From a virus (lineage: Duplodnaviria > Heunggongvirae > Uroviricota > Caudoviricetes): a stretch of 19,270 nt of DNA. The stretch is from the IMG/VR virus record IMGVR_UViG_2648501186_000011, positions 1-19,270 of that record; one strand, written 5' to 3'. A program made the translations under genes and the position numbers. The first letter of the stretch is position 1. Each line of letters starts with the position of its first letter. Of the stretch, positions 4,841 to 18,999 are shown piece by piece. The notes beneath the pieces are model-generated. The model was not told where the DNA came from, did not search any database, and saw only the letters and a list, made by a program, of their open reading frames with translations.

Positions 4841-6364
4841 TTATTCATTTTGAGTATAAGGCGATTTTTCTTTTTCAGTTTCACCCTCACTCACGACGCA
4901 TGTATTTAGCATGTGTTTTTCAGATTCAATTTGTTTGAAAGTCTGAGCAACGTCATAACCCATTTCAGTGATAATCTGAGATTTGGATTTTAAGCCATTT
5001 TCTAACATCATTATTTCGGCTGAGATATCTTTCACCGGATCAACAGACTCAACTTTCGGCCTACTTACCGAAGTAACATCAATAATTGATTCGATCTGAG
5101 TCATTCGAATATTGAGTTTCGAATTAATCACCGCATGTTCAAGGAATGCTTGGAATAACGGTAGAATAACGGTATCAATTAAGCGATCTTGATGCGCTTT
5201 GAAGCGGTTCTTTTCCATTAATGAGCCAAATCTCGCTGCGGAGAAATTCACTGAGCTAGTATCACCAGTCAATGCGGTTTTATAGCTGGAGAGACCCATA
5301 CTAATGGACGTTAGCATTGCCTCGTTAAACGTTTCGAAGTCATCGCCGCCTTGTGTGCTTTGCACCGTCTTAATATCTTGCCCCGGTTCCAAAACGTTAA
5401 TAGTACCCGGTTCGAAATCGGTGATCATCGTCGGCGGTTGATAGTTTTCCGGTTCTTCTTCACCAACATCAAAGGAGTCTTGATTTTCTTTTTCGCTTGT
5501 GATAAACGCCATGCTACTTGCGTGCACGCGTTTGCCAATGATTACGGTTTCGCGGAATGCTTCAAGGTGAGCTATATCTTTGATTATTGGCAGAAAATCC
5601 GTACATCCGCGTAAGGCTTCGGCTGTGCTGGGGATAAAGTAATGCAGCACTCGTTCCGCTGGGATTCGTACACGTTCACCGATGAAGGATTGAGTAAACA
5701 GATCGCGCCGTCTAAACCAGTATGCAACAGGTTTTTCATCTTCGTACTCGATACCAGCATAAACGACATTACCGTTATCTAGAGTACGCTGGTCCGCCCA
5801 ATCAACATGATCCGCGCCATAGATGGACACTTGCAGATCTTTACCATCTTCATGGAGTACCAGAAACGCATCACCGCCCATCACACGCTCTTTTTCCATC
5901 AGCTTTAAGCACTCAAGGAAGTTAATCTTTCCGTTGCGTGAGAATCGTTTCTGAGAGCTAGCCCAACGCCAGAAAGCATTCTCGATTGCTGTGTTAGTGG
6001 TTGCGTCCAGCTTTTCCCCTTTCATAACGAAGGTTCGAGGCTGTAAACCAGTACCTACCACGGAATCGATGACATGTTGGCAATAACGGGAGCCGATAGA
6101 AGTGTTTAACGCAAGGTGTCGCCCTTGATTGTATAAACGTGATGCAGATCCCTTGATCGCGGCGTTAATGCTGCCAGTGATAACCTGACGCGCTGTGCTG
6201 CCTTCAATGCGATCTGATTCAACCAATCCTAATGATCGTTGATGTAGAGCCTTCGTAAATTGTTCAATCTTACGATCTACGAATAATTTGCGGTGCTGGC
6301 GAATACCGATTTTCTTAACCGGATTCACTGGCAATTCTTTTTTACGTTTGAAAAAATTAAACAT
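4841..6364 (-). CDS. Portal protein (lambda gpB-like position and size), 507 aa
   Basis: Size and position between the terminase large subunit and the capsid gene match a lambda-type portal. SD AAGGA 6 nt upstream. Family called from context, not from a motif I can pinpoint. Confidence 0.6.
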   Translation of the reverse strand: MFNFFKRKKELPVNPVKKIGIRQHRKLFVDRKIEQFTKALHQRSLGLVESDRIEGSTARQVITGSINAAIKGSASRLYNQGRHLALNTSIGSRYCQHVIDSVVGTGLQPRTFVMKGEKLDATTNTAIENAFWRWASSQKRFSRNGKINFLECLKLMEKERVMGGDAFLVLHEDGKDLQVSIYGADHVDWADQRTLDNGNVVYAGIEYEDEKPVAYWFRRRDLFTQSFIGERVRIPAERVLHYFIPSTAEALRGCTDFLPIIKDIAHLEAFRETVIIGKRVHASSMAFITSEKENQDSFDVGEEEPENYQPPTMITDFEPGTINVLEPGQDIKTVQSTQGGDDFETFNEAMLTSISMGLSSYKTALTGDTSSVNFSAARFGSLMEKNRFKAHQDRLIDTVILPLFQAFLEHAVINSKLNIRMTQIESIIDVTSVSRPKVESVDPVKDISAEIMMLENGLKSKSQIITEMGYDVAQTFKQIESEKHMLNTCVVSEGETEKEKSPYTQNE

Positions 6365-6373
6365 TTTAAATCC

Positions 6374-6871
6374 TTATCGAGTTAAGCGTACTTTAATCGG
6401 TGTGATCGGTGAGTAATTCCCAGCTTTGCGGCGTTCTTGCTGAATCAGTTTTACGAGTTGTTTTTCGTAATCCTTTTTCAGTTGCTGCAATACCGCAAGG
6501 GATTCATAGGCGAAAGAATTGCCTTTGATCGTGAGAGAACTCAACGCGCTTTCATCATTGTCTAGACGTGCAAAAATAACTTGTTCGATTAAAGAAATGG
6601 TATTTCGAAGATATTCTTTCTTTGTTTCTTTAACGAAGACTGGCAATACGGTTAATTCCTGCATGGATACCAGTTCTTCATCAAGAGTAATAACAATGGT
6701 CATCTTCCCTTCTGGAAAGTCTAACGTTTTAATCTCGTGATTTTCCGGTGCATCATCGACCTGATAGACAATGCCTTTGCTATTACCTACCTGAATGGTT
6801 ACACCCTCTTCATTCGCCAGCGTGATTTTTTCGCCTTTACGAATTACTAAGGGAATTAGTTCTAAACTCAT
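6374..6871 (-). CDS. Hypothetical protein (165 aa) in the lambda gpW position
   Basis: ORF track; SD AAGGGG 5 nt upstream. Lies between terminase and portal where lambda has gpW, but is much longer; no confident similarity. Confidence 0.55.
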   Translation of the reverse strand: MSLELIPLVIRKGEKITLANEEGVTIQVGNSKGIVYQVDDAPENHEIKTLDFPEGKMTIVITLDEELVSMQELTVLPVFVKETKKEYLRNTISLIEQVIFARLDNDESALSSLTIKGNSFAYESLAVLQQLKKDYEKQLVKLIQQERRKAGNYSPITPIKVRLTR

Positions 6872-6944: not shown

Positions 6945-8870
6945 TTAGAAGTTATTAACCCAGCTATTACGACGCACAGGACGCGCCATAGGACGACGAT
7001 TAGGCTTATTGTGAGGGATTGGCTTAGTTTCCTGTTTTTGCTCGTCAGAATGCGATTTAGGAGCTTCTACGGCGGTTTCTGTTTCACGGTTCAGCTTTTC
7101 TTTCAGTGCAATGAGTTTATCCCATGACATTTTTGAAAGAACATAGCGAGAAGCAGCCAGACAATACACAAAACAGTCGAGGCATTCGTTCCTCTGCGAT
7201 CCGGGATTTTTCACCCAACGTGTTCCGGTAGCGGTGCGCTTGATGGACTCACTAAGAAGCTGATCGAGATAGTCATCAGGAACGGTGTGTGATATCTCTA
7301 AGCCAATATGCGGATTATCCTTCAAGTTGCGTGTTAATAGCTCACGAACAGCGGTTTTACCGACGTTTACACCCAACATAAGCAATTCGTGACCACCCGT
7401 GGTAGTTGGCTTAACCGGAATCAGTGGAGCGTTACCGGAGGAACTCCCTTTAATGGCATGAAGATTTTTCCATTTGGTGCAAATGCGGTAGCCAGCTTGT
7501 GTAAATTTACCGTTCGAAGTATCAAGGAAACTAGCCAGAACAGGAACACGCTGGCCTGATACCGTGGTAAACCTGCTTTTCTGGAAGTTGATTAGCTTAT
7601 CCCATACAGGTGATTCGTATCTCTCACAGTTATAATCTCGGAAGACACGGTGATCGAGGATGTAAATCTTATCTTTCGCGATGCCTAGCATAGTTGACTC
7701 GACGCGATCCAACTGCTGGTCCACGCCAAATGTGGCGAAAATAACATCATCTGGGATATTTTCTACACAAACTTCGGTTTTCAGTTGTTCCAGTTCGTTG
7801 ACTTCTACCGCTGTTTCTGCGTCATCGTACACAGTGCCGAGAACTGTATTGTAAAAACTTTGTAAATCAAAGGTTTGCCACGCTTGCGAGAAGTCAGAAA
7901 CACATGATTTGATAGAGCTAAAAGGTGAATACAGACGGCTGATCCAGAATCCTGCTACATCACTTTCACGGGTAGCTCTCCATTCTCCTTGTGCAACCGC
8001 TCTAATGCGATCCCCTTCTGACCAATCACTCTGGCAATGAGGGCAAACATAACGGGCGCTTTCAACACATGGCAGATTGCGACCATCCTGATTTTTCCAC
8101 TCGAACTTAACATTTTCCCACTCGATCACCTGGTGTTTCCCGCAATGCGGACAAGGAACAAAGAATTTACGCTGATCACTTGATAACCATTGTTGATTAA
8201 TCGGTCCCAGCTTAGTGGTCGGGGTACTGGAAACGATAATTCTTGCTTCATCCCCGAAAGTGGTTGCGCGGTTAGCCGCAAGTGCAATCGGATCGCCCTC
8301 TTCACTAGCACTGGCAGCATCACATTCATCAAGCAGAATCAACGGGCTGGTTTTTGAACGCAAGGTTGATGGGCTAGTAAGCGATACCATGTAAAGAAAA
8401 TGATTAGTCTTAAGCTGAATCTGGCTATTGTTATTAACAGCGTTGCGATCATTCTTGTCGGTGATTGCTTCGCGTAATGCCGGACATGCTTCAATGGCTG
8501 GTCGGATCTTCCCGCTTAGGTACTGAGCGGTTTCCTTCGTGGTTGCTTGGCCTATGATGATATTGCTGGGATCGTTAGCTATCTTATTGAATAATATACC
8601 ATTAAGGATGGAAGTTTTGCCGATCTGGGCACTTGTACAAAAAATGTACTTTTTCTTATTCTCTAAGAAAGGAGCATCAATCATGCCTTTCTGAAAGCTG
8701 GTTAATTTAATTTTAGCGCCAGCTTGTGGTCCATCCACTAGGATCATGTTTTCCTCGCACCATTCAGATGGTAAACGCTTAATTGGCGGTCGGATATGTT
8801 TTGATACTTCGTTAAAAATTCGCTTGAGTTTAAATTTATTTGAGAGTTTTTTCACCGTGATTATCCTCAT
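6945..8870 (-). CDS. Terminase large subunit, lambda gpA family (641 aa)
   Basis: Similar in length to lambda gpA as I recall it. Walker A-like [10 protein letters not shown], Walker B-like [11 protein letters not shown], a Cys pair [13 protein letters not shown], and a C-terminal [16 protein letters not shown] that resembles the lambda gpA C-terminus (from memory). No SD before the ATG, and an in-frame stop 18 nt upstream excludes a longer N-terminus. Confidence 0.85.
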
Positions 8871-8925
8871 ATCAACAATATGTTGTATTTAGATAAATAC
8901 GGGTATTAAGATTTAAGGGGGTTGT

Positions 8926-9531
8926 ATGCTAATTAATCAGCAACAAAGAGATGAATTAGAATTAGCATTTTCTTATTGTACCGGTCATGAATATCGTTTA
9001 CCAGTTAAGCACAAGCATTTAAAAACAGATATAACCACTTCTGGCTTTAGTCGTGATGAAGCGAAACAGATTTTAATCGAGTTGTATCGCGATCATGGGT
9101 ATACCGATATTCATAACTTCTTTAAGAAGCATCGCACATCACAGACAGAGTTCCAGAGAGTCCGTGAATGGTTTGATTTTGATATCAAGCGTTATTATCG
9201 AGTGGATGACGGTCCTATCTATCGGTTGCAGTGGACACCGATCAGGGAAGTGTTGAAACAGAAGAGATTGAATCATGCCATTACACGCTATCGTAACGAG
9301 GCTTTCAAGAAAGGCTATGGTGATACAAGGGAACTATTCGTTGAACTCGCTAACGTGAAATATAGCCACTATTACAACGATCCTACAGGGTTCTTCGAAG
9401 TGCTTCGCAAGGTTGATATTAGTCGGGGTACATATTATTCACGGCTGAGGAAGTACGGGATTAAGGCAGAGTTCTTTATGTCGGTTGACGACTCACCCAT
9501 GTTCAAGATAAAATCTAAGTCCTCTAAATAA
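8926..9531 (+). CDS. Hypothetical basic protein (201 aa) with C-terminal HTH-like motif
   Basis: ORF track; SD AAGGGGG 5 nt upstream. The C-terminal VDISRGTYYSRLRKYGIK resembles the recognition helix of the two small GRP-HTH proteins in this window. Confidence 0.6.
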   Translation: MLINQQQRDELELAFSYCTGHEYRLPVKHKHLKTDITTSGFSRDEAKQILIELYRDHGYTDIHNFFKKHRTSQTEFQRVREWFDFDIKRYYRVDDGPIYRLQWTPIREVLKQKRLNHAITRYRNEAFKKGYGDTRELFVELANVKYSHYYNDPTGFFEVLRKVDISRGTYYSRLRKYGIKAEFFMSVDDSPMFKIKSKSSK

Positions 9532-9566
9532 TATTGAGAAATCACTATTGTTTGGAGGAAACTACT

Positions 9567-9794
9567 ATGACTACTAAAGCTACTCGCGGTCGCCCTGCCC
9601 GTTTTACCCGTGAACAGATGGCTGATATTGCCTACGCTTACTATACAGCGGATCGCGGGAAGGAATCGAAAGAACAGATTCTTAGTGAACATGGGATTTC
9701 AGTAGCCCAATTCTATAAGAATATGAAGAAGTTAGACATTAAATTCTATGTTCAGATCGATGACGGTCAGATCGTAGAAGCAACAGGTTTTTGA
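9567..9794 (+). CDS. Small DNA-binding protein, GRP arm plus resolvase/Hin-type HTH (75 aa; start refined from 9534)
   Basis: ATG at 9567 has SD GGAGGA 7 nt upstream. The N-terminal TRGRPARFT is an AT-hook/Hin-like minor-groove arm and HGISVAQFYKNMKKL is a resolvase-type HTH. Paralogous to the 14077..14292 product. Confidence 0.6.
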   Translation: MTTKATRGRPARFTREQMADIAYAYYTADRGKESKEQILSEHGISVAQFYKNMKKLDIKFYVQIDDGQIVEATGF

Positions 9795-9809
9795 GTTTTG
9801 ATTCTCTTT

Positions 9810-9833
9810 GCCACTCTTCGGAGTGGCTTTTTT
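9810..9833 (+). terminator. Intrinsic terminator after the 8926-9794 module
   Basis: GCCACUC-UUCG-GAGUGGC followed by UUUUUU. Confidence 0.75.
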
Positions 9834-9877
9834 GTATATAAAACAATCTGAGCAAAACTGCGCACATCTCCATATAC

Positions 9878-9905
9878 AAAAAGCCCCACCATTACGGCAG
9901 GGCTT
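9878..9905 (-). terminator. Intrinsic terminator after the 214-aa gene
   Basis: Minus-strand RNA AGCCCUGCC-GUAAU-GGUGGGGCU followed by UUUUU. Closely related in sequence to the terminator at 2610-2635. Confidence 0.6.
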
Positions 9906-9909
9906 CTAA

Positions 9910-10554
9910 TCAGATTCCGAAGATAGCAAGGTCAATACAGTTTTCACTATCAAGCAAATCACCAGGACATTTCTTAGTCTTAGGCTTTCTAACACGCGTT
10001 TTAACGGCTTTAACCTTAATGGTCGTGGGGTTGGCTTCCTGTAACTTGATTTTCGCTCTCATGGCCTCGGCAGCAGCCATAATTTCTTCTTCTATTCTAT
10101 TTCTTTGTTCTTTCTCTCTTTGTGCTTGAAACAGTGCCAGCCTCATCCATTCTATCTTCTGGTGTTCTGGATCTGCATTAGCAAGAGCATCCTTCAAACG
10201 AAGATATTCAACCTTATCCGCATCACTCAAAGAATTATAGAAAGCAAGTTCTTTATTATTTCGTTGTTCTAGTTCCTCTTCCATACGGCGAATATCTTTG
10301 ACGATCATGTAAGCGATGTTAGCACTTAATCCCATCATGATAATCAACACGGATCGCTTTCCACCTCTACCTTCAAAGACATAATCACCATCGGTCTTAG
10401 TTGGCTTTTCTTTTAATGCATCCCAACATCTAAGCAATTCCTCTTCCGCCTTCTGATATGACACCTCACATACAACAGCAACCTCGCTTAAAAGCATAGA
10501 TTTAACGCTATCATCACGCATAGCACGGGTAATATCTTCAATAGTCAGATTCAT
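9910..10554 (-). CDS. Hypothetical protein (214 aa)
   Basis: ORF track; SD GAGGA 6 nt upstream. One moderately hydrophobic segment (SVLIIMMGLSANIAYMIV) and a charged coiled-coil-like C-terminal half. Confidence 0.6.
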   Translation of the reverse strand: MNLTIEDITRAMRDDSVKSMLLSEVAVVCEVSYQKAEEELLRCWDALKEKPTKTDGDYVFEGRGGKRSVLIIMMGLSANIAYMIVKDIRRMEEELEQRNNKELAFYNSLSDADKVEYLRLKDALANADPEHQKIEWMRLALFQAQREKEQRNRIEEEIMAAAEAMRAKIKLQEANPTTIKVKAVKTRVRKPKTKKCPGDLLDSENCIDLAIFGI

Positions 10555-10567
10555 AGTGTTCTATCCT

Positions 10568-10593
10568 CAATAAAAGCCCCATATTTCAGGGGC
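10568..10593 (-). terminator. Intergenic hairpin with U-tract between the Rha gene and the 214-aa gene
   Basis: Minus-strand RNA GCCCC-UGAAAUAU-GGGGC followed by UUUUAUUGAGGA, immediately before the SD of the next gene; more likely an attenuator than a full stop. Confidence 0.5.
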
Positions 10594-10607
10594 AAAATAA
10601 TAAAAAA

Positions 10608-11480
10608 TTAAATTCCAAAGTATTCCAGCGATCCGGCGTTCTTACGAATCAGTGCGGCAGTATTATTGACGATTGCACGAGCATTGTTAGGCTGCGGTAA
10701 TTTCAAAGTTGCTCGTTGTTCTTCTTCAATCAATCCCAATTTAACCAGCACAGGTAAACAGTCAGTTGTGAACTCAAGCTGACCATGTGCTGATTGTCGA
10801 GCGTACATGTAAGCAGGAGGAAGAACATCATAGCCGTTAGGCTTACCAGAAGCATCCAGACGACGCTCAATGTGTTTAGCCTCACATAACCCTTTCAGAA
10901 TGCGCTGTACCTTGCCAGAGCCTCGTTTTTCGCCCAATAAGCGGGTTAAGCTGTGTGCGTCAATGGCACGGCGAACATGGAGATCAACTAATTGTTGATT
11001 CTCGTGAAGCAATTGTTCTTTTTCTTCTTCAAGTTTAACCGCTTCGCGCATCCAGTCGAGCTTAGTCATCTTGCTTGCGTCTGGGAACGGATTAGCTTCT
11101 TTGTTTGCCAATTCTGTTAGTAAACGTGCGTTTTCCTCTTTCAGAATCTTCCATTCTTTAATTACACGATTACGAATCGGTGTGCTATATCCAGTGACAA
11201 GAGTCATGCAAAGTTCTTCGTTCAAATGGCATACCGGATCTTTAACAACAATACCTAAGCCATTGATTTTCTCCACAAGACCAAAATTGGACTCCTGCGG
11301 GATACCCAATTCTTTGTACATCACGCGAATGTCACGCAAAACATGTTTATGTTTCTTTCCGGTAAACTCGGCGATCTGGAAAGATGACATAGTTAATTCT
11401 TTTTCTACAGAGTCGTTTGCAGCAACCAGAGACACGGAAGCAGTTTTAACAGCAGTATTCATAGTAGTAACAGTATTCAT
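10608..11480 (-). CDS. Rha-family phage regulatory protein / antirepressor-like (290 aa)
   Basis: N-terminal FQIAEFTGKKHKHVLRDIRVMYKELGI matches the HxxVLRDI signature I associate with the Rha family. The start is ambiguous between M1 (11480, SD AAGGGG 10 nt upstream) and M7 because of an 18-bp tandem duplication. Confidence 0.65.
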   Translation of the reverse strand: MNTVTTMNTAVKTASVSLVAANDSVEKELTMSSFQIAEFTGKKHKHVLRDIRVMYKELGIPQESNFGLVEKINGLGIVVKDPVCHLNEELCMTLVTGYSTPIRNRVIKEWKILKEENARLLTELANKEANPFPDASKMTKLDWMREAVKLEEEKEQLLHENQQLVDLHVRRAIDAHSLTRLLGEKRGSGKVQRILKGLCEAKHIERRLDASGKPNGYDVLPPAYMYARQSAHGQLEFTTDCLPVLVKLGLIEEEQRATLKLPQPNNARAIVNNTAALIRKNAGSLEYFGI

Positions 11481-11522
11481 AGTAGTAATTCCCCTTTCGG
11501 TTTAGTGATATTGATCCTCCTA

Positions 11523-11554
11523 GTTCCGGCATCACCACCGGAACATTTTTATTT
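11523..11554 (+). terminator. Palindromic hairpin with plus-strand U-tract
   Basis: GTTCCGG-catcacca-CCGGAAC followed by ATTTTTATTT on the plus strand. Oriented to stop plus-strand (antisense) transcription entering the minus-strand operon. Confidence 0.45.
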
Positions 11555-11568
11555 ATGATAGAAATTTA

Positions 11569-11901
11569 TTACCAATCGATTTCTACTTGGTCTTCTTCAT
11601 AATAAGGAATCGCATATTCATAACGCCAATTTTCGATGATTTCACGTTCTTCATTAGTAAGAAGGTGATTGTTAACTGGAGTCGCATTGTGATTACCAGC
11701 TTCGAATTGCTCGCGAACTTCCAGCATTGCATGAATACCAGTTAAGGACATCAGATCAAACGGAACATGCATACTACGGGAGATAGTTTCACGGGATACG
11801 CCCCAATCATTTTCTACATGGCTAGGGGTTACAGAAACGGTTTTGCCGGAGATTTTAACAGTCCAGTCATACAGGGATTTAGTGATGGTAAATTCTTTCA
11901 T
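11569..11901 (-). CDS. Hypothetical protein (110 aa)
   Basis: ORF track; SD AGAGGA upstream; promoter-like sequence immediately upstream. Confidence 0.6.
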   Translation of the reverse strand: MKEFTITKSLYDWTVKISGKTVSVTPSHVENDWGVSRETISRSMHVPFDLMSLTGIHAMLEVREQFEAGNHNATPVNNHLLTNEEREIIENWRYEYAIPYYEEDQVEIDW

Positions 11902-11957
11902 GTTACATCCTCTTTACAAATCTAGGTCAAATAGGTTCAAAGTTGTCAAGTGCGATA

Positions 11958-11986
11958 ATCATAAAAAAGTTTGAAGATATTGTCAA
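11958..11986 (-). promoter_or_regulatory. Sigma70-like promoter: TTGACA, 17-nt spacer, TATGAT
   Basis: Read on the minus strand: -35 at plus 11981-11986, -10 at plus 11958-11963. The -35 overlaps the palindrome at 11980-12000. Confidence 0.6.
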
Positions 11987-12000
11987 ATACCCCTTGACAA
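11980..12000. promoter_or_regulatory. Operator-like palindrome TTGTCAA-N7-TTGACAA
   Basis: Perfect 7-bp inverted repeat with a 7-bp spacer. Further TTGTCAAG, GGTCAAA, GTTCAAA and GTTGACC half-site-like copies between 11923 and 12018. Confidence 0.5.
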
Positions 12001-12022
12001 GACGCCAAAGGGTTGACCTAAC

Positions 12023-12490
12023 TTACAGCATATCTAAGCCTTCATCGTAACCATAGAAGCCATTCTGAGAAGAGAAACAGATTGGAGCGTAGTCGTCGTC
12101 ATCTTCGTCTTGTTCATCGCGTTCTGGTGCTTTCTGAGCGGTTTCTTTGCCGTAGTTAAACATTGCTTCATCCAGTTCATAGACAGTAACGAAGCTACCC
12201 AGGTCAATGTCACCGGAACGGACTTCAAACGGAAGATCATCACGAACAATAATTGCTGGTAGATTCTGGTACTTTAAGCGTTCTTCATCGGTGAAGACGT
12301 TAACAACAATGGTCGGCTTCTTATTACGGCAAAACGCATACCATGCACTAGAGAAATGAGATTCATCAGAGTTGAAAAGAATGTTGTAACCACGTTCACG
12401 GAACATCTTCATTAACTTGTCATTGTGGAAGCTATCAGCATCAAAACCTAACAGGATGAAAGGAGTAGTGGTAGTCATTTTATGGTTCAT
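12023..12490 (-). CDS. Hypothetical acidic protein (155 aa)
   Basis: ORF track; SD AGAGGA 8 nt upstream. First gene leftward of the repeat hub. An inverted repeat AGTGAA-N9-TTCACT (12512-12532) lies in its leader. Confidence 0.6.
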   Translation of the reverse strand: MNHKMTTTTPFILLGFDADSFHNDKLMKMFRERGYNILFNSDESHFSSAWYAFCRNKKPTIVVNVFTDEERLKYQNLPAIIVRDDLPFEVRSGDIDLGSFVTVYELDEAMFNYGKETAQKAPERDEQDEDDDDYAPICFSSQNGFYGYDEGLDML

Positions 12491-12564
12491 AGTGGAAATC
12501 CTCTAAAAGAAAGTGAATCAAGTAAGTTCACTATTATTTATAAAGAGAAAATTCTTGTTATTAT

Positions 12565-12882
12565 GAAAAGAGTGATCTGGTAGAGTCCAAAACTGGTCTG
12601 TACTTGAAAGGTGATTGGATTCAGTCGGGCTAAAGCCCTCCTTCATAGATTTTGATTAAATCATCACCAAAACGAAGAAGTATCTTTAGAATATAAGAAT
12701 CTTTCTTTTGAAGAAATAATAATAATCAAACAAGATGGACGCTCCCTGAGCGTCTGCGAAGCATATCTAATTCCTTCCAGTATCATCAAAGTGATCTAGA
12801 ATCAGTTTGTAATCATTATCTTCAAAGTGATTGTAATATCTTTATCTTGAAAGTGATTATAACTACCTTCTTCAAAGTGATC
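12565..12882. repeat. Direct-repeat family (A/T)TCTTSAAAGTGAT, four good and two degenerate copies
   Basis: Cores at 12787-12795, 12823-12831, 12849-12857 and 12873-12881 spaced 24-36 bp; degenerate copies near 12565-12577 and 12603-12616. Confidence 0.7.
12738..12754. other. Perfect palindrome GACGCTC-cct-GAGCGTC
   Basis: 7-bp inverted repeat with a 3-nt spacer in non-coding DNA. Confidence 0.4.
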
Positions 12883-12943
12883 TTGAATCATCATGTAAAC
12901 CAGATTAAAATCCCTTCCTGAATGATTTCAAAACAGATTACTC

Positions 12944-12959
12944 GCGCCCCGCAGGGCGC
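12944..12959 (+). other. Hairpin GCGCCC-CGCA-GGGCGC followed by a T-rich stretch
   Basis: 6-bp stem then ATAATATTCTTTTCTTTT on the plus strand; terminator-like, sharing the GCCCCGCAGG core with 6921-6940. Confidence 0.4.
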
Positions 12960-13074
12960 ATAATATTCTTTTCTTTTATCTACAATCTCTTTCATACCAA
13001 CTCTTTACTATTAACTATTACATATTACATATGACACCCTTCTAAGCCTTGTCCTGTCTGGGTTTCCGTGATTT

Positions 13075-13166
13075 TTGTACATCCTTGTACATCGTAGTAC
13101 ATGTGTTGTACATCCTTGTACATCCTTGTACACGTCACGTACATAGATGTACATCCTTGTACATCT
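13075..13166. repeat. Helically phased array of nine TTGTACATCC-type repeats
   Basis: GTACA begins at 13077, 13087, 13097, 13108, 13118, 13128, 13139, 13149 and 13159, a 10-11 bp period, so every copy is on one face of the helix. Confidence 0.8.
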
Positions 13167-13249
13167 AGGTTAAAAACCAATCAAAAATAGCCATAAAATC
13201 ACCATTTTGAGGGTGTATTTGCTCAATATTTCATCGTGTTTTTGTGATT

Positions 13250-13322
13250 CTGTACAGCAAATCTGTGTCTTGTACACCTTGTACATCTAATACATGTCTT
13301 GTACACCTTGTACATCTAATAC
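13250..13322. repeat. Second TGTACA cluster with two ~28-bp direct repeats
   Basis: gtcttgtacaccttgtacatctaatac occurs twice (about 13267-13293 and 13296-13322). GTACA at 13252, 13272, 13281, 13301 and 13310. Confidence 0.75.
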
Positions 13323-13495
13323 CGGGGAATAGCCCCCCTAATACCGGGGGATTTGTGGATACTAATACCGGGGAAAAAAAACCTAATACCGGGGGATTTT
13401 TATGTGGATGAATGATGGCCTAATCCGGGGGATTCTCTTACAGGACGGTTATCATTTACCCCCTAATACCGGGGAAATTAACCTAATCCGGGGGA
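13316..13495. repeat. Seven iteron-like direct repeats CTAAT(A)CCGGGG(G)A with DnaA-box-like motifs
   Basis: Copies start at 13316, 13338, 13362, 13383, 13420, 13463 and 13483, mostly 20-24 bp apart. TGTGGATAc (13353-13361) and TGTGGATGA (13403-13411) resemble the DnaA box TGTGGATAA. An AT-rich stretch follows at 13540-13640. Confidence 0.75.
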
Positions 13496-13643
13496 TTTTT
13501 GCTTCCAAAACGGGGATATCGCGGGGAAACCCTTAAATTCATTCAAATATTTTGATAGAAAATTCTTGTATATTATTTAACCAAAAAATCATCAAAAATC
13601 GCTGTAGCTTAATGATTTAAAAGGAATTTTCAAAAGGTCACCG

Positions 13644-13652
13644 TGCTATAAT
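13644..13652 (+). promoter_or_regulatory. Possible extended -10 promoter element (TGcTATAAT)
   Basis: TATAAT at 13647-13652 with TG at 13644-13645; only a weak -35 (TTTTCA region). Confidence 0.35.
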
Positions 13653-13732
13653 AGGTTATAAAGGTTGATAATCATTATTCGCCATTTTCACACAAAAATT
13701 TTGATAGTCTTTTCTCGCTTAGGTCAAGGGTA

Positions 13733-13761
13733 TTGACATCTGTCAAGGATTATTTTATGCT
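13733..13761 (+). promoter_or_regulatory. Sigma70-like promoter TTGACA, 17-nt spacer, TATGCT, with overlapping palindrome
   Basis: -35 at 13733-13738, -10 at 13756-13761. The palindrome TTGACA-tc-TGTCAA (13733-13746) recalls the 11980-12000 operator-like site. Confidence 0.5.
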
Positions 13762-13942
13762 TTTTCTCGTTGGTAGGGGTTGAAATTTTCAAAACAATCC
13801 CCATATAGATGATAAGCAAGATTTTCTCGCTACTAAATACATGTGAGCGATGATTATGACTCACTGACCTGAAAAGCTGAAACAGCATAAAATTCTAAAA
13901 AATGCGGTTTTCAGTTTTTCAAAAAGGGGTACAGGAGTCAGA

Positions 13943-13984
13943 ATGATTAAAAAATCGCCAGATAATATTCTGTCTATAGCGTAA
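13943..13984 (+). other. 13-codon mini-ORF (MIKKSPDNILSIA) with a strong SD
   Basis: AGGAG (13932-13936) 6 nt before the ATG at 13943; stop at 13982-13984. It is followed about 35 nt later by the terminator hairpin at 14021-14041, a leader-peptide-like arrangement. Confidence 0.35.
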
Positions 13985-14020
13985 AACTAAGCGCATTACA
14001 GAATAATATAAATATCATCG

Positions 14021-14041
14021 AGAGCGGTTAACGCTCTTTTT
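14021..14041 (+). terminator. Intrinsic terminator/attenuator upstream of the first rightward gene
   Basis: AGAGCG-GUUAA-CGCUCU followed by UUUUU, 20 nt upstream of the SD for the 14077 gene. Confidence 0.6.
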
Positions 14042-14076
14042 AATAAGAAAGATTTGTCTCTTAAGGGGAAGAAACT

Positions 14077-14292
14077 ATGAAAAACTCAATCATGGGGCGT
14101 CCGGTTAAAATCACCGAAGAAAAATACAAAGAAATCCTGATTGCTTACCACTCACAAGTTAATGCAACGAATGCTGATCGTGATGCACTTCTGGCAAAAT
14201 ATGGAATTACTCGCCGGACGTTTTCAAGGCTAGCTCATCGTTACCCAAATGTGAAAGTCGTAACTAAAGTGGTGAATGTAGAAATAGCATAA
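14077..14292 (+). CDS. Small DNA-binding protein, GRP arm plus resolvase/Hin-type HTH (71 aa)
   Basis: SD AAGGGG 8 nt upstream. MGRPVKIT...LLAKYGITRRTFSRLAHRY is paralogous to the 9567..9794 product. Confidence 0.65.
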   Translation: MKNSIMGRPVKITEEKYKEILIAYHSQVNATNADRDALLAKYGITRRTFSRLAHRYPNVKVVTKVVNVEIA

Positions 14293-14327
14293 ATCGCTTA
14301 CTGAGAATTACATTATGAAACTTTTAA

Positions 14328-14363
14328 CCAATAAAAAAGCCCCCTTGCGGCAACAAGGAGGCT
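14328..14363 (-). terminator. Strong hairpin with U-tract, oriented for the minus strand, between two plus-strand genes
   Basis: Minus-strand RNA AGCCUCCUUG-UUGCCG-CAAGGGGGCU (10-bp stem with one G.U) followed by UUUUUUAUU. On the plus strand the A-tract precedes the hairpin, so it may work bidirectionally. Confidence 0.5.
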
Positions 14364-14396
14364 TGAAATGAAGATTTGATACGGAGATAAAAAGAA

Positions 14397-15512
14397 ATGT
14401 CTAACAAGAATAACACTTCAATTGTATTTATTAACTTCAAAAACGACGAAAGCATTCTGAGCAACAATGAACAGATCGTGATGAAAGATTGTGGTGAAAA
14501 TGTCACTACCGTTTTCAAAGAAACTGCAAACACTCTAACCGAACTGGTTGCTAAAGTTCGCGGATATGGTGCTGTTCGTAAAGCTGAGTTTGAGATGGTT
14601 CAAAACTATACCCGCTCTGTTACGGTTGGCGACAAGAAATATAACAAAAACACACATAAGCTGATCGCTAATGATGAAATCAAACTGGTACAGATTTGCA
14701 CTACCGACAAAAACGCTATTTTCTTGTTGGTTGTTCTTGAAAATGAAGCTGGTTTACGTCGCGGTGTTCTGCGTCACCGTTCCATGCGTAATGAAGCTGG
14801 TGTGATTGGTTCTAAAATCCATAACCGCGCATACACTTCTACTTCCAACTGGATCATTGCTGGCGAGAACGAAGGTAAAACAGGCGAGACTTTCAACATT
14901 GCTTTCTTCTCTGCTTTTGACGAAAAGAAACATGTTAAATGGAAACTGAATAATGAAGCCGTAGAAGCTCCTGTGCGCGATTCTGAGAAACAATCTGTTG
15001 AAATCGATGAATCCCACATCATGGCTATGATTCGCGGCGTAGAGAAGCGTTTACGTGATGAATTTAACGCTAAACTTGAAGCTAAAGACAAAGAGATCGC
15101 GGAACTGAAAGCACGTTTAGAAGCAGTAGAAATCAAGACTATTGACACTACTGAAAATCCTGTTTCTAAAGACGTTGTTGCTGATCTGCAATGCGAGATC
15201 CAGATCGCCAGCGACTTCCAGAAAGCAACCAACAAACTCAATGCAAAATTAGAGCGTCGTGATAATGGTCAGCGTCTGTCTGGTGATGATATTCAGGTTA
15301 TTCTGCGCGGTGATATGAAAGAGATTAATGCTAAGTTTGCACCGAAAGGTGTTTTTGCTAGCAAGATTAACGAAGCCCAGGTCGATGAATTGATGCACGC
15401 GTTAGAAGCAGACACCAACGAGACTGTTAAAGCCGCTAATGATGACGTTGCGGCATCTGCAATCGTTTCTGACGAATATTTGAAAGAATTAGATGCACTT
15501 TTGGCTATGTAA
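14397..15512 (+). CDS. Hypothetical protein A (371 aa): N-terminal globular domain plus C-terminal coiled-coil-like region
   Basis: ORF track; SD GGAG 10 nt upstream. The C-terminal half is rich in charged, heptad-like sequence (KLEAKDKEIAELKARLEAVE). No recognisable family. Confidence 0.7.
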   Translation: MSNKNNTSIVFINFKNDESILSNNEQIVMKDCGENVTTVFKETANTLTELVAKVRGYGAVRKAEFEMVQNYTRSVTVGDKKYNKNTHKLIANDEIKLVQICTTDKNAIFLLVVLENEAGLRRGVLRHRSMRNEAGVIGSKIHNRAYTSTSNWIIAGENEGKTGETFNIAFFSAFDEKKHVKWKLNNEAVEAPVRDSEKQSVEIDESHIMAMIRGVEKRLRDEFNAKLEAKDKEIAELKARLEAVEIKTIDTTENPVSKDVVADLQCEIQIASDFQKATNKLNAKLERRDNGQRLSGDDIQVILRGDMKEINAKFAPKGVFASKINEAQVDELMHALEADTNETVKAANDDVAASAIVSDEYLKELDALLAM

Positions 15513-15539
15513 TTTTAATTTTTAAGAGGAATAACGATT

Positions 15540-16631
15540 ATGAAGACTTACACCGACATTACCAACAAACAATTTTCTACCGCTGATCATTCGGTGGTTA
15601 GGCTTGCTATCTGGTCAGATATGAAATTTACCTTTAAATTTGGGTGTAAAGGATTTAAGATTAATTTTTCAGTTGACCACGTATTACCGGACCGCGCTGA
15701 TGACCTGATTAAGATTTTGCGTTATCGTGGCTATGGCCTAACCAATGGTGAGTTAACCATGATCTACAGCTTCGTTAATAAATCCGGTGATATGCTTGTT
15801 CGTAATATTACTGGTTATGAAATTAACGGTAAAAAAGGTGTTGCTATGACCGTTGTTGGTCGTGGTGGTATGGTTGCCGTTTATACATTCGGGTATAGCG
15901 CATTTTATAGCAAGAAAAATGATTACTATTATGGCAAGCGCACTAAACTAGATCATTACGGTCGTTATAGCCTGGGTGTTGCGGCTAAATATGAAAGTTG
16001 TATTGTTCTTAAAGATTCGATTCATGGTGAATTTGAAATCATGTCACAATACGACAAAACGCCTTATGACTACTACCGTGTAAAAGTTAAAGTACCGAAA
16101 GTGTTAGAGCCTCACGAATCTCATGTTGAATGCCGTGCTAAAACAATTAAAAAACTGCGTGATGAGAATGACCAGCTTTCTACGCGTCTAAGCAAGTTAA
16201 AAACCAAAGTACGAGATAAACGTAATCGTCACACTATCGAAGAACGTAAAGCTGCATACGATGAATACGTGGTTACTTTAAAGAAACGTGATGCTTTGCG
16301 TGAGTATTTTTGCAAAATCGATGCGATGTGCGCTGGTCGTTTGTACAGAGGAAAGAATGTGGCTGCGGTGAGTTTTGAGGAAATGGCAGAATTAACGCCT
16401 ATCAAGGAAGAGATTCAACTACCGAATGAAAAGGTTGCTTTGGTTAACGAAAAACGTAAACTAGTTGAAAAGGTGGCACAGGTGGATAAAGAGATTAAAA
16501 CTAGCGAAGGAATGGTTAAAGAGGCGTACATCGCTTTGCGTGATTCCTTAGAGATTCAAATCAAGCATATTGACCTTGAGATCTTGAAACTGTCCATGCC
16601 TAACCGCCCTACTCTACGTCTTGTTGCTTAA
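15540..16631 (+). CDS. Hypothetical protein B (363 aa): aromatic-rich N-terminal domain plus basic coiled-coil-like C-terminus
   Basis: ORF track; SD AAGAGGA upstream; 27 nt after gene A, so probably co-transcribed. Ends at the strong terminator at 16644-16676. Confidence 0.7.
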   Translation: MKTYTDITNKQFSTADHSVVRLAIWSDMKFTFKFGCKGFKINFSVDHVLPDRADDLIKILRYRGYGLTNGELTMIYSFVNKSGDMLVRNITGYEINGKKGVAMTVVGRGGMVAVYTFGYSAFYSKKNDYYYGKRTKLDHYGRYSLGVAAKYESCIVLKDSIHGEFEIMSQYDKTPYDYYRVKVKVPKVLEPHESHVECRAKTIKKLRDENDQLSTRLSKLKTKVRDKRNRHTIEERKAAYDEYVVTLKKRDALREYFCKIDAMCAGRLYRGKNVAAVSFEEMAELTPIKEEIQLPNEKVALVNEKRKLVEKVAQVDKEIKTSEGMVKEAYIALRDSLEIQIKHIDLEILKLSMPNRPTLRLVA

Positions 16632-16643
16632 GACAATAAAAAA

Positions 16644-16676
16644 GGGAGTCCCCGACGAAAGAGACTCCCTTTTGAT
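16644..16676 (+). terminator. Intrinsic terminator after the A/B operon
   Basis: GGGAGUC-(12-nt loop)-GACUCCC followed by UUUUGAUUU. Confidence 0.75.
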
Positions 16677-16747
16677 TTAGGATCAACACAACAAACAAAT
16701 TAAGGATTCTAAGGAAATTATAATGAACACTACCGTTACATTATTCT

Positions 16748-16782
16748 TTAAAGCCAGAAAATAACCGCCCCCTTCGGGGCGG
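16748..16782 (-). terminator. Intrinsic terminator downstream of the 92-aa membrane-protein gene
   Basis: Minus-strand RNA CCGCCCC-GAAG-GGGGCGG followed by UUAUUUUCUGGCUUU. Confidence 0.6.
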
Positions 16783-16939
16783 GAGGATTAACACTAATCT
16801 ATACTTGTTATGTTTTTATGATGTATAGACCATCGACTATGAAAACACTGTACTGTATGTGTTTTTATGGCTTTTAATCGGGAATCCTCAAAGAAGACCC
16901 CCTGTTAATAACCATAAGGAGAAAAGGCAGATTACATTA

Positions 16940-17218
16940 TTATTTAGTATCCTTGTTACTTAACACAAGAAACACCAGATAAAACAGAATCAGGATAAAG
17001 CACGTTTTACCAAATCCTTCGGGGTTAACATCAAACAGAATCATAGAGATTAACGCTACCACAAAACTAATCGCTTCGATGATAACTACGATAGCAGAAT
17101 ACCCGATAAACGCGCCTAAGAATAATTCGTACTTCTCTTTATTACTGTCAGAAAGACCGTAAGCGGTAATCATGGAAAGCGCGGTAATGATTACGAGATA
17201 AGTCAGAAAAATAGTCAT
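16940..17218 (-). CDS. Small membrane protein (92 aa, about three predicted TM segments)
   Basis: Three hydrophobic stretches (FLTYLVIITALSMITAYGL, LGAFIGYSAIVVIIEAISFVVALISMILF, CFILILFYLVFLVL) and a short polar C-terminus. SD AGAGG upstream. Holin-like or exclusion-protein-like in shape only. Confidence 0.6.
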   Translation of the reverse strand: MTIFLTYLVIITALSMITAYGLSDSNKEKYELFLGAFIGYSAIVVIIEAISFVVALISMILFDVNPEGFGKTCFILILFYLVFLVLSNKDTK

Positions 17219-17250
17219 TTGTATTTTGCCTCTAGTTAGACAAACATCCT

Positions 17251-17296
17251 CAAAAAATCAAATCAGAAAAATTGGGAGGGGAGCATCTAACTCCCC
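17251..17296 (-). terminator. Intrinsic terminator after the small terminase gene
   Basis: Minus-strand RNA GGGGAG-UUAGAUG-CUCCCC followed by a U-rich tract (AAUUUUUCUGAUUUGAUUUUUUG). Confidence 0.6.
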
Positions 17297-17348
17297 TTAG
17301 ACGTTGACCCGTTCAACATCTTTCTCACTATTATTTAGTATCTAATTT

Positions 17349-17906
17349 TTACGACACATCAAATTCATCGTCTTCTTGTTCTTCTTCCGGTTCTTCCTGC
17401 TTCACTTCCTCATCTTCTGAGTATTCATCGTAGGCATCAAGATCCGGTGAAATCATAATATCCCCGATCTCATTCAAACGAGCGGAAATGATATCCTTCA
17501 ATGTTTCTTTCAAAGTACGCTGATCCGTTGCAGCTTCCATAATTTTTAGAGTGTCTACCGTCGCCACCTGCATCATGGTCTGGCGTACATCACCACAAAA
17601 TCCGGCTAGAACTGTTTCTACATAACCTACAGGAATCAGATCATTTAGTTCGGTGCGGTTCTTAAGTTCGATGGCATCGGCCTCGCCTCTCGCCTTTCTT
17701 AATCGTTCTTGTTGGATCTGCGCTTGTACATCCACTTCCCTAAGTGGGTTAATGATGTTCTCAAGCACCCAGGCGATCGCTCTATCCCGTGGACAACGGC
17801 GGGTATTCGTATTATACGGAAGACCACGATCACGCCATTTCTGAACAGCCGGAAGGGAATACCCATACATTTTAGATAATTCGGTTAAAGTTACTTCTTG
17901 CGTCAT
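17349..17906 (-). CDS. Terminase small subunit, lambda Nu1 family (186 aa; start refined from 17981)
   Basis: ATG at 17904-17906 has SD AGAGGA 7 nt upstream; the ORF-track start has none. N-terminal HTH LTELSKMYGYSLPAVQKWRDRGLPY and central ERLRKARGEADAIELKN...VETVLAGFCGDV parallel lambda Nu1 as I recall it. Acidic C-terminal tail. Confidence 0.65.
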   Translation of the reverse strand: MTQEVTLTELSKMYGYSLPAVQKWRDRGLPYNTNTRRCPRDRAIAWVLENIINPLREVDVQAQIQQERLRKARGEADAIELKNRTELNDLIPVGYVETVLAGFCGDVRQTMMQVATVDTLKIMEAATDQRTLKETLKDIISARLNEIGDIMISPDLDAYDEYSEDEEVKQEEPEEEQEDDEFDVS

Positions 17907-18214
17907 GAAACTATCCTCTGAGCTAAAAATATGCGTAATTGTATTTAGACGAAATACGCAATATAACGGCCTATAACGCAATTTAAGAAAATCCCATGTG
18001 ACGGGGCGTTGAGAAGTGATTTAGCTCGTTGTAGGGCTTGTTTGGTGGCTTAACTAAACCAATTTGAAAAAGGCACAAGCGAGATTTAAACCGCGCCGGG
18101 CAAAACACGCCCTCTTTTGCCACCTATCACAGTACCTTTTTGTTGTCAAGTCTTTTTTATCGAATATTTTAAATTTTTTCATCTTTTTTCTCGTGCATTC
18201 ATCCGTTTTTTTCT

Positions 18215-18283
18215 CGGTCAAAATCAATGACTTGACCAGTTGACACTGATCCGGTCATCAATATAATCGGTCACACTTTGACC
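18215..18283. promoter_or_regulatory. Cluster of CGGTCA / TGACC half-sites around the lipoprotein promoter
   Basis: CGGTCA at 18215, 18252 and 18268; TTGACC at 18232 and 18278. Includes the palindrome GGTCA-cactt-TGACC (18269-18283) just downstream of the -10. Confidence 0.45.
18240..18267 (+). promoter_or_regulatory. Near-consensus sigma70 promoter TTGACA, 16-nt spacer, TATAAT
   Basis: -35 TTGACA at 18240-18245 and -10 TATAAT at 18262-18267, about 115 nt upstream of the lipoprotein start codon. Confidence 0.7.
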
Positions 18284-18383
18284 ATGTAAGGTGTGTTTCG
18301 GATGTGAGGATTAACGATAGATATTTACATAAATAAAGATGTGGTTAATCCATTCATCAATTTAATTCTCTGGAGGATATTCT

Positions 18384-18956
18384 ATGTTTAAAAAGATTGG
18401 TGTTATTGCTGCGGTTGTTCTGTTATCTGGTTGTGCGTCTATGGCTGAACTTGAAAAGCGTAGTGATGGTCTTTCGGCTTATCCTGGCATCAAGTATGAA
18501 CAGTTTCAGGGGTATGAGATTGTAAGTAGCTATACAACTACAAAGGCAACTCGCCCATATAACAAACTTAAAATGCAATCCTGTCTCTATGACACTGTGC
18601 GTAATGACATTATGGTGCATACTGACGCATTCAATGAGATTAAAGATTTAGAAGCTGGTGGTCGTATTGTTGAACGCGCCCGTTCTAATAGTGCTATTTT
18701 TAGTGGCAACTTCGAGCAAACTATTACCTTGCGTACTATTGTAGGTGACACTCCCTATACTCAATATGTGAAGTATAAAGGTATTGCTTTACCGTCCGGT
18801 GATAAGACACAGTTCACATTTACCGGATTGAGTGTTAAGCCTAAATCTGGTGGCGAGCATCCACTATGGTCACGTAAAACAAATAGCCCAGAAGAAAGTA
18901 TTAAAGAACTTGATAAGCTGGCGGATGAGATTGCCGATTGTCTTAATGATGAATAA
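18384..18956 (+). CDS. Lipoprotein (190 aa), candidate superinfection-exclusion factor
   Basis: Signal peptide with lipobox MFKKIGVIAAVVLLSG|C. SD GGAGGA 6 nt upstream. Exclusion role is by analogy only. Confidence 0.75.
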   Translation: MFKKIGVIAAVVLLSGCASMAELEKRSDGLSAYPGIKYEQFQGYEIVSSYTTTKATRPYNKLKMQSCLYDTVRNDIMVHTDAFNEIKDLEAGGRIVERARSNSAIFSGNFEQTITLRTIVGDTPYTQYVKYKGIALPSGDKTQFTFTGLSVKPKSGGEHPLWSRKTNSPEESIKELDKLADEIADCLNDE

Positions 18957-18973
18957 AGAATAACTGATTATAT

Positions 18974-18999
18974 AGCCTCGCTAAATGCGGGGCTTTTTT
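18974..18999 (+). terminator. Intrinsic terminator after the lipoprotein gene
   Basis: AGCCUCGC-UAAAU-GCGGGGCU (one G.U) followed by UUUUUU. Confidence 0.75.

Follow-up and report, generated by a model that had tools for sequence, protein, structure and literature searches.

The window analysed here is the whole 19,270 nt stretch of IMG/VR virus record IMGVR_UViG_2648501186_000011 (Caudoviricetes), and all positions refer to it unless another locus is named. It encodes both subunits of a lambda-type terminase, the small subunit TerS (positions 17349–17906) and the large subunit TerL (positions 6945–8855). The two genes are co-oriented on the minus strand and are separated by a gap of approximately 8.49 kb. 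The original prediction, made from the sequence alone, had them about 8.5 kb apart, and both the distance and the gene identities, as determined with Pfam and PHROG, agree with it. The two genes of this lambda-type terminase are kept apart, in a stable manner, by the control region of the phage itself. The explanation that best accounts for the data is an inherited split of single origin with the control region between the two genes, in a window that is the left third of a temperate siphovirus-type E. coli prophage of about 40 kb, which a large serine recombinase has inserted into hicB. Taken jointly, these statements are probably correct.

Conservation and origin of the split

The arrangement is found throughout a clade of enterobacterial prophages. 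Every one of the 48 in-group loci examined, spread over five enterobacterial genera, has terS and terL on one strand, with terS 4.9–8.6 kb upstream. These loci (40 plus eight more) come from E. coli, which has two TerS types, from Salmonella, Providencia, Atlantibacter and Buttiauxella, and from further viral contigs. The set includes the Atlantibacter and Buttiauxella prophages, where identity to the window proteins falls to 48% for TerL and 40% for TerS. Two further loci show no TerL within the 2.6–3.2 kb available downstream of terS. The unusual packaging layout of a lineage, one of two possibilities that had been raised for the window, is thus what the synteny comparison reveals.

A sister clade (IMG/VR; TerS group P0074–P0082), made up of viral contigs that are either uncultured or prophages, has a terS–terL gap of -85 to +44 nt in all 80 loci. 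Adjacency of Nu1-type and gpA-type genes had been taken as the normal state, and this holds: the lambda genes overlap by 26 nt, the 80 sister loci are adjacent, and for distant TerL relatives in the phage database TerS is found under the same match. In a neighbour-joining tree of TerL rooted on lambda gpA, the split and adjacent clades are reciprocally monophyletic. As the sister clade has adjacent genes and the two clades are reciprocally monophyletic, the split is derived. By these sequence comparisons it is a clade-defining, inherited trait and not a recent insertion or an annotation error, and it probably arose once, at the base of the enterobacterial clade.

In a sister-clade contig a serine integrase gene comes first, early genes that include an HNH endonuclease follow, and terS–terL are last. 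The in-group prophages have the order attL, (morons), terS, control region, terL, and then lysis, helicase and integrase genes and attR. The presence of an early region between integrase and terS in the sister clade suggests that the rearrangement, as judged from gene order, is a reshuffling of core modules and not an entry of foreign cargo.

The small subunit

TerS is 185 aa in length. It has an N-terminal winged helix-turn-helix, a coiled-coil or helical middle segment and a disordered acidic tail with the conserved ending EF(D/E)(V/L/I)S. Residues 2–172 match phrog_57, annotated as terminase small subunit (E 1.5e-17), and the only sequence matches in the PDB are lambda Nu1 structures (6hn7, 1j9i, 7lw0). 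When a profile built from 20 members of the TerS family is aligned to lambda Nu1 residues 2–107 by hhalign, the probability is 94.7% (E 6e-8). This alignment spans the winged helix and the coiled coil that follows it (IQQERLRKARGEADAIELKN in comparison with IEYERHRLTRAQADAQELKN). The AlphaFold (AF2) model, with a predicted local distance difference test score (pLDDT) of 74.5, displays the winged helix-turn-helix, a long helix, a helical bundle and the disordered acidic tail. The top three PDB matches of the model in Foldseek are Nu1 DNA-binding domains with probabilities of 0.96–0.98; for a domain of this small size the E-values are weak, and alone they are not significant.

The TerS family is small. 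A profile search of 1.84 billion representative sequences yields only 175 relatives, mostly 150–200 aa. When 100 remote relatives were tested, Pfam Phage_Nu1 matched 57 of them (E <= 1e-3, best 9e-28) and DUF1441 matched 15. The window protein itself scores 23.0 bits with Phage_Nu1 (PF07471), below the gathering cut-off of 30, over residues 57–117 only. The combination of a score below threshold and 57 of 100 remote homologues that match PF07471 shows that TerS is, by sequence, a divergent member of the Nu1 superfamily. The family is also homologous to the sister-clade TerS proteins (hhalign probability 99.9%, E 1.8e-36, 148 of approximately 182 columns). The small-subunit assignment is sound; it had been proposed for confirmation by hidden Markov models and structure prediction, and phrog_57, the hhalign alignment to Nu1 and the Foldseek matches all bear it out. 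The protein at 17349–17906 could instead have been a Nu1-fold transcription factor with the true small-subunit gene located outside the window, but no other TerS candidate was found in the 40 kb prophage. A first pattern-based scan of contigs for TerS gave no matches.

The large subunit

TerL is 636 aa when read from the GTG at position 8855; the longest open reading frame extends to an ATG at 8870. It contains both gpA domains, GpA_ATPase (PF05876; E 2.7e-59, 201 bits with a cut-off of 25.6) and GpA_nuclease (PF20454; E 6.7e-44, 151 bits with a cut-off of 22.5), and matches phrog_15 at 4.4e-140. It aligns end to end with lambda gpA at 22% identity (BLASTP, E 1e-23).

The ATG start of TerL in E. 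coli, Salmonella and Providencia relatives aligns with the GTG at 8855–8853, and an invariant TGAGG(A/G)TAAT precedes the start in the same three genera. Within it is a conserved Shine-Dalgarno sequence, GAGGA (8864–8868, minus strand), with an 8-nt spacer to GTG 8855. ATG 8870 is inside this conserved block, and GTG 8855, fixed by the alignment with relatives, is the true start. Gene callers give 634–637 aa for the relatives. The claim that the large-subunit gene has no Shine-Dalgarno sequence is therefore incorrect. The accompanying claim, that no obvious promoter is present upstream, holds: no strong sigma-70 promoter was found in the gap of 55–70 bp, and upstream there are only weak 9/12 matches. 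The divergent gap between TerL and p201 has a block, TTAATACCCGTATTTATC (8892–8909, minus strand), that is kept in E. coli and Salmonella relatives and is present in a single copy in the window. It may serve the late operon as a promoter or as a site for a regulator.

In the Atlantibacter and Buttiauxella prophages an endonuclease VII gene is directly upstream of terL (L041, 9351–10000; L042, 9302–10000). It is followed by a conserved stem loop (GCATCCAAAACG...CGTTTTGGATG) and then by a strong intrinsic terminator 30–40 bp before the terL start. The position of this terminator resembles that of the promoter-proximal terminator of a late operon controlled by antitermination. The endonuclease VII gene is the co-oriented 150-aa gene upstream of TerL that was considered as an alternative TerS and rejected on its identity. 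The window protein p155 is not its equivalent; it is unrelated to the endonuclease VII gene and has no helix-turn-helix.

The region between terS and terL

The DNA between the terminase genes consists of opposed modules. Genes are on the plus strand at 8926–9794 and 14077–16631 and on the minus strand at 9910–12490 and 16940–17218. The transcription units would be p201-p86 and p71-p371-p363 (plus) and p155-p110-Rha-p214 and terS-p92 (minus). Three repeat arrays are present, and terminator-like sites are in excess (20 compared with 9.2 ± 3.1 in shuffled sequences). The mixed-orientation modules, repeat hub and terminators that had been described between the genes are thus all observed. The GC content is 0.35–0.40 in the block and 0.41–0.48 in the late genes.

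The centre of the block is a non-coding hub of approximately 1.6 kb (12500–14076) between divergent operons. It contains four copies of TCTTCAAAGTGAT (12783–12895), 10-bp repeats with TGTACA that form about a dozen palindromes with a 10-bp periodicity (13075–13170 and 13251–13308), and six to seven CTAATACCGGGG iterons at spacings of roughly 21–45 bp (13312–13500). Equivalent hubs with other iterons are found in Salmonella, Providencia, Atlantibacter and Buttiauxella. Prophages with an identical TerS have CTAATACCGGGG iterons, CTAATCCGGGGG iterons or neither, and those with the second E. coli TerS type have TTTTGCCCCTGAA, AAACCTACACT or ACAAGACAAG iterons at the same place. The iterons were considered as cosB or pac sites bound by TerS and were rejected as such, since the iteron type is independent of the TerS type. 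This uncoupling suggests that they are immunity or replication specificity sites, and the hub probably represents an origin, immunity operators or both.

To the right of the hub, the plus-strand operon is headed by p71 (14077–14292), a small predicted helix-turn-helix protein. It is followed by p371 (14397–15512), with a globular N-terminal half and a coiled-coil C-terminal half, in place of which relatives have unrelated proteins of 300–400 aa, and by p363 (15540–16631), which varies among relatives. The p371 and p363 proteins are not paralogues of each other. Two strong intrinsic terminators on the minus strand (16673–16640 and 16782–16765; stems of 14 bp and 7 bp followed by T-runs) end the terS-p92 transcript, which is convergent with p363. 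The p92 gene (16940–17218, minus strand) is downstream of terS in the same unit and encodes a strongly hydrophobic protein of 92 aa with about three predicted membrane helices and a weak DUF997 match. It is present in only some relatives, and Providencia has a gene with an AbiTii domain near its position.

The leftward operon starts with p155 (12023–12490, minus strand), which has an acidic C-terminus, followed by p110 (11569–11901, minus strand), which is preceded by a promoter-like TTGACA-17-TATGAT at 11986–11958. The third gene encodes a Rha/Ant-family regulator of 290 aa (10608–11480, minus strand; Pfam Phage_pRha, 5e-12; phrog_63, anti-repressor Ant, 1.2e-17). In a gene-presence comparison Rha was matched in all in-group loci except DCP80 (a database record described below) and the Atlantibacter and Buttiauxella prophages; the latter two have an Ant-like gene on the opposite strand instead. 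The last gene, p214 (9910–10554, minus strand), is found only in some relatives. Directly after its stop codon is a hairpin with a T-run (9878–9905, minus strand), read by eye and not listed by the terminator scan, which is a probable terminator of the operon. A terminator at this position would make simple read-through into TerL unlikely.

Next to TerL, on the plus strand and divergent from it, is p201 (8926–9531), which is 84–100% identical in most E. coli relatives and 48% identical in Salmonella. It is followed by p86 (9534–9794), a small predicted DNA-binding protein and paralogue of p71, which is probably 75 aa from an ATG at 9567; homologues are 73–75 aa by PGAP and other gene callers. 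Relatives from E. coli, Salmonella and Providencia have a p86 gene that adjoins terL and is read from the other strand, and blastp with p86 matches both the TerL-proximal and the hub-proximal small genes of relatives. The p201-p86 unit ends in an intrinsic terminator (9810–9827, plus strand) with a 7-bp GC-rich stem and TTTTTTG. Both p86 and p71 are candidate regulators of the lysis-lysogeny decision or of late genes. No match was found for p371, p363, p201, p214, p155 or p110 in Pfam, PHROGs, NCBIfam or the PDB.

The architecture of the block is constant in the clade, with a divergent operon that has a small helix-turn-helix gene first, an iteron hub of 1.2–1.6 kb and an operon towards terL. 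Its contents are highly mosaic, and both proteins and iterons are swapped among close relatives in which flanking genes are > 90% identical. The sole regulators detected in the prophage, i.e., Rha/Ant, p71 and p86, are all in the block, which also has divergent promoters on the two sides of the hub. The rest of the prophage has only structural, lysis, helicase, nuclease and integrase genes, and no immunity or replication-initiation function was found there. These properties, in a block where most proteins have no detectable homologues, suggest that it is the phage's own control region and the probable origin or replication region.

A non-coding element next to terS and the subunit interface

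Upstream of terS is a conserved non-coding leader (17926–18160, minus strand). Alignments show that approximately 250 bp upstream of terS are conserved across genera. A core of about 90 bp in the window (18054–18139) reads AAAGGTACTGT ... GTTTTG ... TTTAAA ... TTGTGCCTTTTTCAAA, and across clades AAAGGTACT ... GTTTCG ... CTTTT ... GTGTGA.TTTTTAAA. In nhmmer searches each locus has exactly one copy of the element, which is invariably close to terS and in no case near terL. In twelve sister-clade loci, where the TerS proteins are only about 30% identical, the core is located 60–700 bp upstream of terS. Conservation across clades and movement with terS fit a terminase recognition site, and the element is the best candidate for cos, on circumstantial grounds. 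A structured RNA in the leader was considered and rejected, as RNAalifold gave no consensus structure; Rfam has no match in the window.

The acidic TerS tail with its conserved end has a counterpart in a basic TerL N-terminus. The N-terminal ~16 residues of TerL track the TerS type in E. coli and Salmonella, while the TerL body recombines between variants 54% and 77% identical to the window protein. A recurrent breakpoint is observed after about residue 16 (codons 1–20 are at 8796–8855), and one N-terminal peptide, MKLISNKAKLKKIL, is joined to both of these bodies. In lambda the gpA N-terminus binds the Nu1 C-terminus. The tracking of TerS type by the TerL N-terminus matches this rule and is suggestive, being based on few types.

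A model consistent with these properties starts from an ancestor with overlapping terS and terL, as the sister clade keeps them. The two genes would now be separate transcription units of a lambda-type two-subunit terminase. The terS gene lies at the prophage edge, with its own conserved upstream element and strong terminators after it, and terL would open the head-tail late operon 8.5 kb away. The control and probable replication region between them recombines freely among relatives while the terminase genes stay put. TerS, made in trans, would bind the ~90-bp element beside its own gene by its Nu1-like winged helix, the element having moved with terS during the rearrangement. Its acidic C-terminal tail would then recruit TerL through the basic N-terminal peptide, as Nu1 and gpA interact in lambda. 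Binding at an element beside terS would place cos between attP and terS and make the virion chromosome nearly collinear with the prophage map.

A bolder version of the model, which is doubtful, has cos and terS moved together beside attP and off the late operon, with a virion chromosome collinear with the prophage. The terS gene would be controlled independently of terL, or TerS may even double as a directionality factor of the serine integrase, which would couple excision to the start of packaging. If cos and terS do lie together beside attP, the clade would offer a natural system in which a Nu1-type subunit finds its gpA partner purely in trans.

Alternative explanations

Several observations weigh against the explanation of an inherited, split terminase with a recognition site beside terS. 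The TerL tree has no support values, and the phage collection has no isolate of the clade apart from one chimeric record (DCP80). For TerS, the low Pfam score and weak Foldseek E-values are joined by a lack of matches to NCBIfam models, and the winged helix-turn-helix fold is also common to MerR, Xis and BldC proteins. The co-variation of TerS tail and TerL N-terminus involves only three or four types, where population structure is possible, and no strong promoter for TerL was found in the gap upstream of it. In one sub-lineage (L154) the element is just downstream of terS. Dyad symmetry or a terminator hairpin at the GTTTCG core was rejected (mean arm of 3.74 nt compared with 3.52 nt in shuffled sequences), and the element could be a promoter or operator of terS instead.

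The Nu1-like protein might be a winged-helix regulator, acting either as a transcription factor or on the serine integrase, as its excisionase or recombination directionality factor, with packaging carried out by TerL alone or with an unrecognised small subunit. The gene is 0.4–1.7 kb from the prophage end in all five genera and would flank attP opposite the integrase in the circular form. One relative has a weak match to phrog_66 'excisionase' (E 0.003), and the shared fold and sub-threshold Pfam score given above point the same way. However, the Nu1 homology extends into the coiled-coil assembly region (Nu1 residues 82–107), and a protein of 185 aa with a TerS-like helical body is much larger than a typical Xis. 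In the sister clade the homologous genes overlap the 5' end of a gpA-type terL, which is the canonical terS position. The 57 Phage_Nu1 matches among remote relatives and the absence of another TerS candidate in the prophage also argue against a regulator, and gpA-type enzymes need a small subunit. In the DCP80 relative the gene follows the lysis genes, and the 32 kb next to it have no annotated integrase. In E. coli one and the same family of serine integrase accompanies both TerS types, which carries no information on a directionality role. A regulator in place of TerS is given little credence. Even less probable is that the 8.5 kb block is a dispensable accessory or mobile island (a moron cluster, satellite or defence island) inserted between adjacent genes, the second possibility that had been raised. 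Its AT-richness relative to the late genes, the mosaicism among close relatives, patchy genes such as p214 and p92 and the AbiTii gene in Providencia would suit an island, as would the ancestral adjacency displayed by the sister clade. The block is nevertheless present in every member (48 of 48 loci with the same architecture), contains the only regulators and the only iteron arrays of the prophage, and has an equivalent in the early region between integrase and terS of the sister clade. No integrase, transposase or flanking direct repeats were found in it, and the proposal of an inserted island, in the sense of a recent or dispensable insertion, is not upheld.

An alternative that is unlikely but deserves more weight keeps the split and relocates the recognition site: the terminase would act at a site within the iteron hub or immediately before TerL, and the element next to terS would be only a promoter or operator. 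The simplest relatives have the order hub, endonuclease VII, TerL, so that the hub is directly upstream of the TerL operon. Short-repeat arrays resemble pac and cosB sites, and the P1 pac hexamers and lambda R sites are known packaging sites of this kind. The terS-proximal element of the in-group has a TTGACA box, yet no credible -10 box is present at the right spacing. The DCP80 contig runs from a point 1.7 kb upstream of TerL to one directly after terS, a layout that genome ends or an assembly break between the two would produce, but this record is a scrambled chimera with uninformative ends. Two comparisons argue for the element rather than the hub. Iterons differ where TerS and the TerL N-terminus are identical, yet persist across different TerS types, and the terS-proximal element is conserved across clades in which TerS is about 30% identical.

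The prophage and its other features

In the complete genome of E. coli strain RMDEC332 the element is a prophage of about 40 kb that splits hicB. It also encodes tail, lysis, helicase and nuclease proteins and, at the far end, a serine recombinase of 559 aa. The exact TerS protein is found in many E. coli assemblies, each time beside tehAB-ydcP-yncJ-hicA-hicB, and one locus (L003, GCA_001005685.1) has 100% matches to all window proteins. Relatives are present in 63 of 5426 complete E. coli genomes (~1%), and members of the clade are also found in Salmonella, Providencia, Atlantibacter and Buttiauxella. No plasmid match to the window was found, and literature searches gave no description of this prophage family.

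The insertion interrupts hicB, the antitoxin gene, whereas hicA stays intact. In the PGAP annotation a partial hicB fragment is found at each of the two prophage ends, outside the window (L008, 33793–34104; L009, 9824–9943), and excision should restore hicB. The ends of IMG/VR metagenome contigs were considered as cos ends and rejected, since the contigs start exactly at the hicB start codon and represent trimmed prophages.

The head-tail late operon on the minus strand consists of TerL, a gpW-like protein (6374–6871), a lambda-family portal (4841–6364), a capsid protein (2743–4797), three small proteins and a tail fibre. The capsid gene is a fusion in which an extremely acidic linker of ~170 residues joins an S78 prohead protease to an HK97-fold major capsid protein. 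The tail-fibre gene (1–960, minus strand) runs off the left end of the window. Its C-terminal tip (positions 1–177) has 98.8% DNA identity over bases 1–165 to T4-like gp37 (the distal long-tail-fibre gene), e.g., that of phage ELT4, and is 82–89% identical to RB49-like phages. This match indicates, at the sequence level, that lytic T-even phages and a temperate siphovirus-type prophage have recently exchanged a receptor-binding module. A chimeric window, from misassembly or a phage inside a phage, was rejected; the T4-like match is the tip of the prophage's own tail-fibre gene and represents ordinary mosaicism.

Between terS and the prophage end (hicB') is a moron-like unit on the plus strand (18240–18994). 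It has a perfect sigma-70 consensus promoter, TTGACA-16-TATAAT (18240–18267), the 190-aa lipoprotein p190 (18384–18956; lipobox LSGC; phrog_29243) and a closing terminator (18974–18994). The p190 unit looks like a moron expressed in the lysogen, possibly for superinfection exclusion.

One GenBank record, PQ671644.1 (L001, L072), 'Escherichia phage DCP80, complete genome', is 141 kb and filed under Gaprivervirus. The T4-like genes in it are not in their usual order, one fragment is annotated as terminase large subunit, and the record opens with a 26 kb contig, foreign to the T4-like scaffold, of a phage related to the clade. The record appears to be a scrambled scaffold or chimera. Although it is the only relative in the phage database, it was rejected as evidence on synteny or genome ends for this reason.

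It is difficult to recognise a small terminase gene, and many analyses, like annotation pipelines, take it for granted that terS is beside terL. The clade demonstrates that a whole control region can stand stably between the genes of a Nu1/gpA pair. Together with its adjacent sister clade it provides a natural comparison of whether co-translation or stoichiometric coupling of the subunits matters. The same pair of clades bears on the position of cos relative to terS and on late transcription when terL has no upstream partner. The finding is a curiosity of comparative genomics and not a new mechanism.

Comparison with known systems

The window terminase is similar to that of lambda in several respects. 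TerL has both gpA domains and the end-to-end gpA alignment, TerS has the Nu1 winged-helix domain and the coiled-coil segment that follows it, and a gpW-like protein and a lambda-family portal are downstream of TerL, as in the lambda order A-W-B. The differences are that lambda Nu1 and A overlap by 26 nt in one late transcript, whereas the window genes are 8.5 kb apart in units bounded by terminators, and that the window head uses a fused S78 protease-capsid protein in place of lambda C/Nu3/E.

Separated terminase genes have precedents. In P2, M and P are in divergent operons and are separated by O and N, and in T7 genes 18 and 19 are separated by 18.5/18.7. None of P2, T7 and PaP3 is known to have an immunity or replication region between the subunits, and none is known to have a Nu1/gpA pair. 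These phages resemble the window in that terminase subunits are not necessarily adjacent or co-transcribed, but their separations are short (one to a few genes, <= ~2.6 kb) and inside a morphogenetic or lysis module. In PaP3 the non-adjacent terminase genes are reported as p01 and p03 (PMC3488191).

TerS of Staphylococcus aureus pathogenicity islands (SaPI) and Rpp of phage-inducible chromosomal islands (PICI) are also encoded away from any terL and act in trans, and one of the best structural matches of the window TerS is the complex of Rpp with Nu1 (6hn7). No sign of helper-phage hijacking by this prophage was found in its gene content. Unlike the satellites, the window terS is in a complete phage with matching TerL, portal, capsid, tail and lysis genes.

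The closest comparison is with the sister clade. Its TerS is homologous over the full length (hhalign probability 99.9%), its TerL is 36–48% identical, and it has a serine integrase and the ~90-bp element upstream of terS. The difference is in gene order: in the sister clade terS abuts or overlaps terL in 80 of 80 loci and the early region is upstream of terS, whereas in the window the corresponding region is between the two terminase genes.

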